A stretch of 56,220 nt of DNA, the filler included, from Stramenopiles sp. TOSAG23-3 (Eukaryota), in NCBI GenBank assembly GCA_900128585.1. It is 6 parts of 6 records of this genome, joined end to end, with 100 filler letters (N's around TTAATTAATTAA, not from the genome) between each part and the next. Parts side by side here need not be neighbours in the genome. Positions count along the whole stretch, not along the records: positions 1 to 16,773 come from LT642479.1; 5 more parts are not named here. One strand, written 5' to 3'. The notes under the pieces are model-generated. The model saw only the letters and a program-made list of their open reading frames with translations, was not told the origin of the DNA and did no database searches. Positions 1,546-4,500 of the stretch are shown in pieces. The translations under genes were made by a program, and so were the position numbers. Positions within the stretch are counted from its first letter, which is position 1, and each line of letters begins with the position of its first letter.

Positions 1546-4500
1546 ATGGTCTTCAGTTTACGAAAGCAGCGGTACAAAGGTAAACTGACCCCAGAAATAC
1601 TGCGTGCACTGGAGAACGAACACTGCAAGCTGACAAGTTTGGACCTAAGTTATAACGATATCGCAGACGCGGGGGCAACTGCCCTTGCCCGTGCACTGGA
1701 GAACGAACACTGCAAGCTGACAAGTTTGAACCTACACCGTAACGGTATCAGAGCCGCGGGGGCAACTGCCCTTGCCGGTGCACTGGAGAACGAACACTGC
1801 AAGCTGACAAGTTTGAACCTAAGGAGAAACGGTATCGGAGACGCGGGGGCAACTGCCCTTGCCCGTGCACTGAAGAACGAACACTGCAGGCTGACAAGTT
1901 TGCACCTAGGGTATAACGGTATCGAAGACGCGGGGGCAACTGACCTTGCCCGTGCACTGGAGAACGAACACTGCAAGCTGACAAGTTTGAACCTAAGGTA
2001 TAACAATATCGAAGACGCCGGGGCAACTGCCCTTGCCCGTGCACTGGAGAACGAACACTGCAAGCTGACAAGTTTGAACCTAAAGAGTAGCGGTATCGAA
2101 GACGCGGGGGCAACTGCCCTTGCCCGTGCACTCGAGAACGAACACTGCAAGCTGACAAGTTTGGACCTAAGACAAAACTATATCTTTGACGCGGGGGCAA
2201 CTGCCCTTGCCCGTGCACTGGAGAACGAACACTGCAAGCTGACAAGTTTGAACCTACGCGAAAACNNNNNNNNNNNNNNNNNNNNNNNNNNNNNNNNNNN
2301 NNNNNNNNNNNNNNNNNNNNNNNNNNNNNNNNNNNNNNNNNNNNNNNNNNNNNNNNNNNNNCGGTATCGAAGACGCGGGGGCAACTGCCCTTGCCCGTGC
2401 ACTGGAGAACAAACACTGCAAGCTGACAAGTTTGGACCTACACTGGAACGGTATCAAAGCCGCAGGGGTTAACGCCATTTACAATGCCCTGGAGTCTCGT
2501 AGCACACCATCCACTTTGACGAACCTATCCCTTTACACACGCCCAGATGATAGCACCCTTCCCCCTGAACTAAAAAACAAATCCTGGAACAAAATCCTCG
2601 CCTACTTGCGATCCCTCCACCACTCCGATACCACGACGGGGGGGAACATCAAGCTCTTGCTCATCGGCCCCGGCGCTGCAGGGAAAACCACGTTGCGCAT
2701 ACGGTTGGAAAAACAACAGTTTGAAGAAACAGAGCAAACGGACGGGATTGAAATCACGCGCCTCAAGTTGAAAGCAGCCGGTGCGAACGCGGTAGACCTT
2801 CACGTCAACGTGTATGACCTTGGGGGTCAAGACGAGTACATGGCAACCCACCCGTTGTTTATGGAAGCACGCTCGATCCATTGCCTTACCGTAGACTTGC
2901 AAGCTTACGCGCGCAACCCAACCGCAGTCTCACCCCAACGGTTCGTCCGCAACGTCCGCGCCCGGCTTGGGGATAAGGCGATCATCATTCTGGTCGGGAC
3001 GCATGCAAGTGATGTTGTTTCAAATTCGGTTCCTCTCGACCTAGCAAAGCAGCTAAATGTAGATAAGAACTTGAACGTTCGTGGTGACCACGTCTTCGCC
3101 ATCGACTCAAAGACCGGGTATGGCTTGAAAGAATTCATAACTGGCGTTCGAAACCTTGCATTCAGCTTACCCCACGTGAAACAAATCGTTCGCAATGAAT
3201 GGCTACAATTTCTTGTGCGCCTAAACGATGAACGCGCACGACGTAAGTTTATGGTTCGGGACGATGTGATCGGCCTGGGCACGGCGGTAGAGTTCAACAT
3301 GAGCGAAGACGACGCGAAGCTTGCCCTCGATTTTTTCTACGGGTGGGGGGAGATTTATTACAACAGCAATGCTCCCGAACTAAAGGATTGGGTAGTCCTG
3401 GAGCCGCGATGGATTGCGGACGCCCTGGCGTGTGTTATTGGGCCAACTAACACCAGGCGCAATGATTTGGAAAACGGCCCAGGCCCTTCGAAAAGGCAAC
3501 GTACTGCCCAGACTGAGACACGCCGCGATTGCATCAAAATGGGCATGTTAAAGTACTCTGACTTGGAACGTGTATGGCCAGAAGATACGTTTGGGAACGA
3601 TCCCAACGCCCGAACGTACCTCTTGCGCGTCATGCAAAACCTTGAGTTGGCACACGCAGTGTTGAGCAGCGAAGGGGTCCTACAAGATTATTGTTTGGTC
3701 CCAGCCATGCTACCACGGTCGCGACCTTCGCAAGTTGGCGTGTCGCTTGCCAACGATCGCCGTCGGAGGCGAATTAAAATCACCTTCGACATGGAATTTT
3801 TACCACAAGAATTTTTTCCAAAACTCCTGGTTCGACTTCGTCGATTTGTCGTACCACAAGGAAGCTGGTTCGACGGACGGGAGCTAAAGCAGGGGGGGGC
3901 AAGTCTCCGGCACCCAAACGTAGATGGAGTTGATGGCTTGTTAACATTTTATCACCAGTTAACGCACTGGAGATTTGCCATTGAAGTGTGGGGTACACGA
4001 GAAGATTCAAACGTGATGCAGCAAGCGTGCATGTTTCGAGGCGATATTCTTTCATGCTTTTGGTACACGTGTGATCTGTACGCGGAACAATGGGTCGAAA
4101 TAAGCGACCTGAACCTTGTATCAGAATTCGACAAGGTGCTGTCGGTGGAAGAAGCAAAAGAAGACATGATTGAAGAAGAGTCAGTTCCCATGTTTCGACA
4201 TCCCGGGAAACGGCCAAACAAAGTAGCAGCACTGGTGGACGATTTGTTGCCCATTATTATACAACGCGACCCAGCCGTTTACGACAATATTATGAATCAA
4301 AGCGACCGTGACCTTCAATTATTGCGGCATCTCACCACTGTTATGCTAGAACAACAGCTCCCAGACCGGCTACGCGGACAGAGGGCGCCGCCATTATTGT
4401 GGTTGCTGCTCCCCTCTGACGTAGATTTCGCACAAATTCCCGAAGACCGTGAGTTGGGCGCACATAGTGCGCAGCCAGGGCTTATGTACACTGGCTCGCT

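Follow-up and report, generated by a model that had tools for sequence, protein, structure and literature searches.

Receptors that diversify at a few positions of a repeat are known from brown algae and fungi. The LRR-ROCO proteins of Ectocarpus, in which leucine-rich repeats (LRRs) are joined to a ROCO core, carry positively selected, hypervariable sites on the concave face and shuffle their exons, as set out in the relevant passages of PMC3341825, and brown-algal ROCO proteins have simple LRR-ROCO architectures in the sections of PMC11378527 that deal with them. In fungal NLR proteins (Podospora HNWD/het-e, and the TPR and ANK types), passages of PMC4986451 describe repeats that evolve in concert, each with four positions under selection. 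Here we analyse a 56,220-nucleotide stretch of DNA (the window) from the uncultured marine protist Stramenopiles sp. TOSAG23-3 (assembly GCA_900128585.1), in which one open reading frame (ORF) begins with a tandem array of near-identical LRRs and continues into Roc-COR, PARP, SidE-type phosphodiesterase (PDE) and PHD domains. An initial annotation of the window had recognised the array and overlooked these other domains of the same ORF. The array is probably the arm through which a ROCO-type receptor binds non-self ligands and diversifies, and we predict ADP-ribosylation as the output of that receptor. The genome that we searched is a 28.4-Mb eukaryotic assembly of 7088 contigs, and the array gene lies on contig G000:C76.

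Distribution of variation in the LRR array

Repeat units start at positions 1630, 1717, 1804, 1891, 1978, 2065, 2152 and 2239, and again at 2423 past a run of Ns. The initial annotation described nine residue pairs at unit positions 7-8 set in 87-bp units that are almost invariant even at synonymous sites, and both observations hold. The pairs (SY, HR, RR, GY, RY, KS, RQ, RE, HW) are all distinct, and the 23 scaffold codons of the window units give a proportion of non-synonymous differences (pN) of 0.027 and of synonymous differences (pS) of 0.039, with scaffold pS at 0.04-0.05 overall. At codons 7-8 of the same units, pN is 0.647 and pS 0.625, which is close to saturation. The array matches itself at 89% of DNA positions, with 4-16 differences per 87 bp, mostly at codons 5-13. 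It thus falls within the published class of repeats with high internal conservation (>85% identity, at least 100 aa, few hypervariable surface positions), a threshold that was set at the protein level whereas our figure is for DNA.

Adding the five full units of a second contig, C1687, does not even out the variation. Codons 7-8 hold 14 of the 39 variant alleles, in 6 columns (Bonferroni P 1.3e-5), and 29 of the 39 fall in codons 5-13 (P 2e-6). There are 13 distinct codon-7/8 pairs among 14 units, with one codon pair unchanged in two of them. The variation previously noted at positions 5, 10 and 12 is present, and position 13, which had been missed, varies too; at these four codons every distinct codon encodes a distinct residue, with zero synonymous variants. 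Positions 2-3 are frozen, a feature peculiar to this array, and the variation is displaced to the loop after the strand. An AlphaFold model of the array is a confident solenoid (predicted local distance difference test score, pLDDT, 91) that places the strand at unit positions 3-5, and its top Foldseek matches are NLRP and ribonuclease-inhibitor (RI) LRRs; the modelled fold is an RI/NLRP-type LRR horseshoe. With the strand at positions 3-5, positions 7-13 would therefore lie on a loop that, as in LRR proteins generally, would be at the rim of the concave face.

The same codons vary in the population. Metagenomes had been suggested as a place to look for such variation, and in an independent one the pairs at all three listed joints over codons 7-8 are new with respect to the 14 that were assembled. 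Each new pair, as read by eye, is one non-synonymous base away from an assembled pair, and two of the three introduce an acidic residue. The gene body differs by about 1.4% in this metagenome (44 of 3060 bases, 8 listed records), and 29 of the 40 listed body variants (of 143) are non-synonymous. The gene occurs in public marine metagenomes and metatranscriptomes and in one small run that is a possible source of the assembly. Four runs were compared with 2362-6900 as contigs, not raw reads, and runs X21 and X22, which contain none of the gene's words, were excluded. In two RNA runs, contigs are present over 26 and 27 of the 30 bins of 2362-6900, which suggests that the gene is expressed, with the reservation that RNA libraries can hold DNA; one unit in an RNA run is identical to the seventh window unit.

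The array as assembled is not complete, a correction to the initial annotation, for units are missing inside the N gap. Contig C1687 (G000:C1687:1-523) is a 523-bp pure array of 87-bp LRRs, 91% identical, that starts with the same codon-7/8 unit that ends the left part of the array. The gap probably holds at least 5-6 further units of C1687 and one or more duplicated units, a placement that we infer. Because an in-register gap must be 87n-1 long, the 96 Ns misstate its size. In the source-like run, contig depth is 509 over the gene body, about 425 (about 0.8x) over single units, about twice the single-unit value over two unit-specific pieces, and up to 3611 (up to 7x) over shared scaffold pieces. 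Word counts in that run are 8.5 observed against 7.9 expected from the window plus C1687 or 5.9 from the window alone; in a second comparison the figures are 5.7 against 5.5 or 3.5. Both times the window plus C1687 gives the closer fit. With depth in amplified DNA as a rough guide, the true array probably has at least 15 units, some of them duplicated.

Exchange between units could account for the uniform scaffold. When informative site pairs were put through the four-gamete test, 10 of 15 failed, some of them lying inside the scaffold. This points to such exchange, though recurrent mutation could give the same signal. Together with the recurring codon pair and the population variants at codons 7-8, these failures favour the earlier proposal of homogenisation combined with diversification at binding-edge residues. 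We propose that the 87-bp units exchange sequence by gene conversion and unequal crossing-over, which homogenises the scaffold and alters unit number and order, and that diversifying selection may retain new residues at positions 5, 7, 8, 10, 12 and 13, on the beta-strand and following loop at the concave-face rim. In a ROCO-type receptor-effector protein the array would be the arm at the N-terminus that binds the ligand, its units jointly presenting one continuous protein-binding surface with no one-unit-one-base code. The most likely ligand would be a non-self protein that changes fast, from a virus or an intracellular parasite.

The hypervariable repeat pattern is not special to the LRR-ROCO gene in this genome. 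A protein search, the wider look for arrays that the initial annotation had recommended, gave 114 matches; of 30 loci fetched, 8 have 84-bp arrays, and 7 of these were analysed (L005, L006, L012, L013, L022, L024, L031), all near-identical arrays with binding-face variation. The same variability pattern is seen in six, where pN at positions 7-8 is 0.61-0.75 against 0.02-0.22 in the helix; in the seventh the values are 0.58 and 0.39. L005, L006 and L022 have one common scaffold, and L012 is an LRR-kinase.

ROCO core and predicted effector domains

Roc is followed directly by COR, the tandem order by which ROCO proteins are recognised, and the GTPase motifs are readable in the sequence; the genome has only one close Roc-COR copy. 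No Pfam family scored above cut-off between COR and PARP (3731-5300), Atlas matches were under 0.9 for 4250-5300, and the whole interval carries many non-synonymous population variants. The PARP domain has the His-Tyr-Glu catalytic motif positions, as judged from alignment: Tyr and Glu align to PARP1/PARP2 with weak E-values (0.003-0.03), and His is conserved in the family alignment. It scores E 4e-51 against our own profile, which includes the window sequence, and no close paralogue of it was found in the genome.

The domain after PARP is a SidE-type PDE (PF12252) by both sequence and fold. Its model (pLDDT 95) matches lpg1496 with Z 28, DupA with 25 and SdeA with 24-25, whereas unrelated phosphodiesterases score about 9; over the Legionella PDE structures, Z is 23-28 and the root-mean-square deviation about 2.5 over 230-245 residues. 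Its Glu motif and Arg are kept, as is the first of the two catalytic His residues. The full catalytic His-Glu-His set (SdeA H277, E340, H407) is absent, as Trp replaces the second His in the window PDE and in its nearest relative, P0001 (58% identical); this column holds His in 130 of 151 homologues and Trp in 1. DupA mutants at catalytic histidines, including the equivalent one, trap substrates, according to the mutant data cited from PMC6941232. Given this result and the Trp, the window PDE is more likely a binder or trap of ADP-ribosylated or phosphoribosylated substrates than an enzyme that turns them over. Lpg1496, its nearest solved relative, does not hydrolyse ADP-ribosylated (ADPR-) ubiquitin in the experiments quoted from Wan et al. 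(10.1101/745331). In the mechanism that we envision, ligand binding would switch the Roc-COR GTPase dimer and so license the C-terminal output: PARP would ADP-ribosylate targets or consume NAD+, and the PDE, one catalytic His short, would bind or trap the modified substrates.

Related PDEs are often paired with ADP-ribosyltransferases. At E 0.001, 357 proteins were recovered from a search over 1.84 billion representatives. Pfam scans of 110 proteins, 102 from the 150 listed plus 8 that came from further look-ups, showed kinases, LRR, TPR, ankyrin, Sel1, SAP, OTU, PARP and ADP-ribosyltransferase (ART) domains as partners. With our own profiles, seeded from family matches, PARP was found in 20 of 150 and ART in 21 of 150, never together, and one or the other adjoins the PDE in 40 of the 79 homologues of at least 450 aa. 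PARP-PDE cassettes occur on LRR, TPR or kinase proteins (L040-L042, L053, L059; P0046, P0053, P0079, P0128, P0131, P0140), and one of these, P0046, has a layout like that of the window gene: its LRRs are near-identical and are joined to OTU, PARP and PDE. Among 22 GTDB loci, four encode PARP and PDE within a single ORF (Coxiellaceae and Gammaproteobacteria metagenome-assembled genomes, MAGs) and one in adjacent ORFs (a Parachlamydia MAG); the 17 further loci have the same PARP clade with no PDE within the fetched stretch.

We built a midpoint-rooted FastTree tree from 132 PDE rows that cover 200 or more profile positions. It divides, with support of 0.99, into one group that holds the bacterial PARP-PDE records and a group of 58. 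The latter includes the window PDE, a second PDE of the genome on contig C843, and all three named eukaryotic proteins, from Emiliania huxleyi (haptophyte), Helgoeca nana (choanoflagellate) and Pseudoscourfieldia marina (green alga); since most of its members are unnamed, the eukaryotic range of the group is an extrapolation. Recent bacterial capture of the window PDE is not supported, as this PDE lies outside the bacterial PARP-PDE group.

Of the 40 long members of the group of 58, 36 pair the PDE with an ADP-ribosyltransferase-like domain. In 30 it follows the PDE and has Arg, STS-like and ExE motifs, in 3 it is a Pfam ART and in 3 a PARP; two further proteins with the R/STS/ExE domain sit in the other tree group. 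The identity of this domain rests on its motifs and one profile match, to the ART Vis (E 4.8e-4); a profile-profile match that owes most of its signal to the PDE is not counted as evidence. The second genome PDE (L033, G000:C843:1-1738), in an ORF open at its 5' end, keeps both catalytic histidines and is followed by such a domain, which Pfam, a single-sequence PDB search and our first ART profile did not detect. This PDE and ART-like family (P0156, P0152, P0158 and about 27 more) has varied N-termini, with SAP, kinase, ankyrin, thioredoxin and myosin domains.

In the passage on this question, Wan et al. (10.1101/745331) state that Legionella is the only place where phosphoribosyl ubiquitination has been found, and treat a similar pathway encoded by eukaryotes as an open question. 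One could envision that free-living protists from several supergroups have SidE-like systems of their own, in which a PDE joined to an R-S-E ART or PARP writes or erases phosphoribosyl-linked marks on ubiquitin or some other substrate, and that here the cassette is coupled to a diversifying LRR sensor and a ROCO switch and acts as an immune output. We regard this as a tentative idea with the balance against it. If true, it would reveal a eukaryotic counterpart, and a possible source, of the Legionella pathway. The Emiliania, Helgoeca and Pseudoscourfieldia proteins, with a SidE-type PDE followed by an ART-like domain, make the question directly testable.

Some eukaryotic family members already carry an automatic PF12252 assignment. 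Judged by titles and the openings of abstracts, in a literature set that covers few subscription journals, no description of a eukaryotic SidE-type PDE or of a PARP-bearing ROCO protein was found, and the relevant passages of a 2026 review (PMC13720258) do not mention eukaryotic PDEs. The LRR-Roc-COR-PARP-PDE-PHD architecture and the protist PDE-ART family appear to be undescribed.

Alternative explanations for the array

Several points weigh against reading the array as the diversifying arm of a receptor. Codons 7-8 are near saturation in the per-codon comparison that the initial annotation called for, but local pS (0.50-0.63) is as high as pN (0.65), so that pN/pS is near 1 at these two codons taken alone, which fits local hypermutability or tolerance. 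The population evidence comes from contigs, which do not resolve repeat order and number. The Trp column was equated with SdeA H407/DupA H189 through the lpg1496 alignment and range arithmetic rather than residue-level superposition. A word-limited search with the Roc-COR-to-PARP region found no full-length relative at E 1e-8 among 6447 candidates, and a metagenome scan with the LRR array returned 2 loci from 31 stretches, both unrelated LRR proteins. Conservation of the architecture therefore rests on the population contigs and on P0001, a PDE-PHD fragment.

The first of these points would be explained by neutral tolerance, in which a recently amplified array has been homogenised and its unconstrained surface codons escape conversion. 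The near equality of pS and pN at codons 7-8 and the frequency of the pattern in this genome are in its favour. We nevertheless think it unlikely, as other surface positions (2, 3 and the helix residues) are frozen, codons 5, 10, 12 and 13 have only non-synonymous variants, and all three new population pairs alter residues.

Alternatively, the arm could recognise polymorphic conspecific or self proteins, in allorecognition or as a guard (compare Podospora het-e/het-d), with the PDE as a possible integrated decoy for PDE-targeting or ADP-ribosylating effectors. The evolutionary signature resembles that of the HNWD genes in the part of PMC4986451 that treats it, the PDE lacks one catalytic His, and PARP-PDE cassettes exist in the bacteria listed above. 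Against this, the window PDE belongs to the eukaryote-containing tree group, which speaks against a recent capture, and no cell fusion is known for the organism. This reading is a good deal less probable than that of a receptor for non-self proteins, and we doubt it somewhat more than neutral tolerance.

TAL effectors consist of 33-35-aa, two-helix repeats that form a DNA-wrapping superhelix, and their repeat-variable di-residue (RVD) code reuses a few di-residues, one per base. The initial annotation had proposed a TALE-like modular code and suggested an acidic or nucleic-acid ligand; taken literally, such a code would have each LRR read one base or residue through its position-7/8 pair. The likeness is genuine at one level, as both systems are built of near-identical DNA units in tandem, in which two neighbouring residues are hypervariable. 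Arg, Lys or His also fills 13 of 30 codons at positions 7-8 here against 17 of 98 in other arrays of the genome, in hand counts of related units with one of ours counted twice. The fold, repeat length and number of variable sites differ, however: the unit is a 29-aa beta-alpha LRR of RI type with 5-6 variable positions rather than 2, and four positions vary besides 7-8. A four-letter code would reuse few pairs, whereas the 14 units hold 13 and the population adds three more. Furthermore, the pattern recurs in six of seven other arrays, most units have acidic residues at scaffold loop positions 12-13, no nuclear effector architecture accompanies the array, and neither DNA binding nor a small reused code is in evidence. 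The analogy is superficial and such a code very improbable. A nucleic-acid ligand likewise finds no support from the RI/NLRP-type fold, or from the acidic residue in two of the three new population pairs; an acidic protein surface is a possible ligand.

Targeted mutagenesis by a templated mutator, whether like the adenine-directed process of diversity-generating retroelements (DGRs) or another, could in principle write the variable codons, and constant third positions at codons 5, 10 and 13 and near saturation at codons 7-8 are compatible with it. We give it very little credence. Five of six third-position adenine columns are invariant, the exception being at codon 12, itself variable; outside codons 5-13 a single adenine column of 14 varies; and no reverse transcriptase was found among the 25 window ORFs scanned; the DGR-like form is rejected on these grounds. 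Last, the idea that the assembler made the constant frame by consensus from collapsed reads, to which the N gap inside the array and a short-read, single-cell-type assembly might lend some colour, is scarcely credible, because the source-like run and two independent runs give the same scaffold and contig depths in the probable source run match the unit counts.

Gene layout and comparison with known systems

The features of the ORF are collected in Table 1. The contig that carries it, C76, also carries a mitochondrial carrier gene. Window positions 7690-9893 (+) have 63% GC and two overlapping long frames for a basic, Trp/Arg-rich repetitive protein with no Pfam match; the frames may be one gene with an intron or a frameshift. 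A microbial rhodopsin gene at 53245-54264 (+; Pfam Bac_rhodopsin E 1e-28) is truncated by a contig end. Artificial joins between contigs lie at 16774-16873, 33629-33728, 50357-50456, 52312-52411 and 54267-54366, each made of 44 N, a 12-base all-frame stop linker and 44 N, and genes on either side of a join are not neighbours.

Table 1. Features of the LRR-ROCO gene in window coordinates
Feature	Coordinates	Strand	Remarks
Single ORF, LRR-Roc-COR-(unassigned)-PARP-SidE-type PDE-PHD	1546..6829	+	Intronless; two parts in repeat register across N gap
87-bp (29-aa) RI-type LRR array, 5' part, 7.5 copies	1603..2265	+	Codons 7-8 hypervariable; 5, 10, 12, 13 variable
Assembly gap within LRR array (96 N)	2266..2361	.	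Gap size under-estimated
Last 1.2 LRR units	2362..2467	+	Contigs of other units pile up here
Roc GTPase domain	2642..3139	+	Pfam Roc E 7.8e-15; also Ras, Arf; P-loop, G3, G4 motifs readable
COR-A domain	3197..3712	+	Pfam E 2.3e-13
Stretch of ~520 aa between COR and PARP	3731..5300	+	May include COR-B
PARP-type ADP-ribosyltransferase domain	5363..5884	+	Pfam PARP E 4.9e-9
SidE/lpg1496-type phosphodiesterase (HD-like) domain	5885..6640	+	Pfam E 8.4e-30
PHD finger	6674..6811	+	Pfam E 1.1e-9

The effector end of this gene outweighs its repeat pattern in importance. Near-identical repeats are a known way of diversifying receptors, and given the Ectocarpus and fungal NLR precedents the pattern is a further instance of it. 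In the window gene, which belongs to an unstudied marine protist, a SidE-type domain is linked to a sensor that resembles an immune receptor.

Like the brown-algal LRR-ROCO proteins, the predicted protein has N-terminal LRRs with a hypervariable binding face, a Roc-COR core and signs of repeat shuffling; a stramenopile-type host is a further, probable but weak, likeness, since an AP-4 beta subunit encoded on a neighbouring contig has its closest named relatives mostly among oomycetes, at only about 38% identity. The algal genes have one-LRR exons and spare intronic LRR exons, whereas the units here are contiguous and intronless. In place of the Ectocarpus ROCO family, this genome has one close copy, with 29-aa RI-type units and a PARP, SidE-type PDE and PHD C-terminus. 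Fungal NLR repeats share with this array concerted evolution and a few diversified interaction-surface positions per repeat, and they vary in repeat number. They are WD40, TPR or ANK repeats on a NACHT or NB-ARC ATPase, with no LRRs, whereas here an LRR array sits on a Roc GTPase.

At the C-terminal end, the closest systems are those of Legionella. Lem26 combines an ART and a PDE whose substrate is unknown, as described in the pertinent section of PMC11696984. The SidE family, DupA/DupB, Lpg1496 and Lem26 share the PDE fold with the window protein, and like it combine PDE and ADP-ribosyltransferase in one chain. In SdeA (DUB-PDE-mART) the core order is PDE and then R-S-E ART, which the order of PDE and ART-like domain in 30 of the 40 long members of the group of 58 resembles. 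SidE ligases use an R-S-E mono-ART that modifies ubiquitin Arg42. The window gene, by comparison, is a eukaryotic host gene that has a PARP-type transferase instead, placed before the PDE, and a Trp at one catalytic His position.

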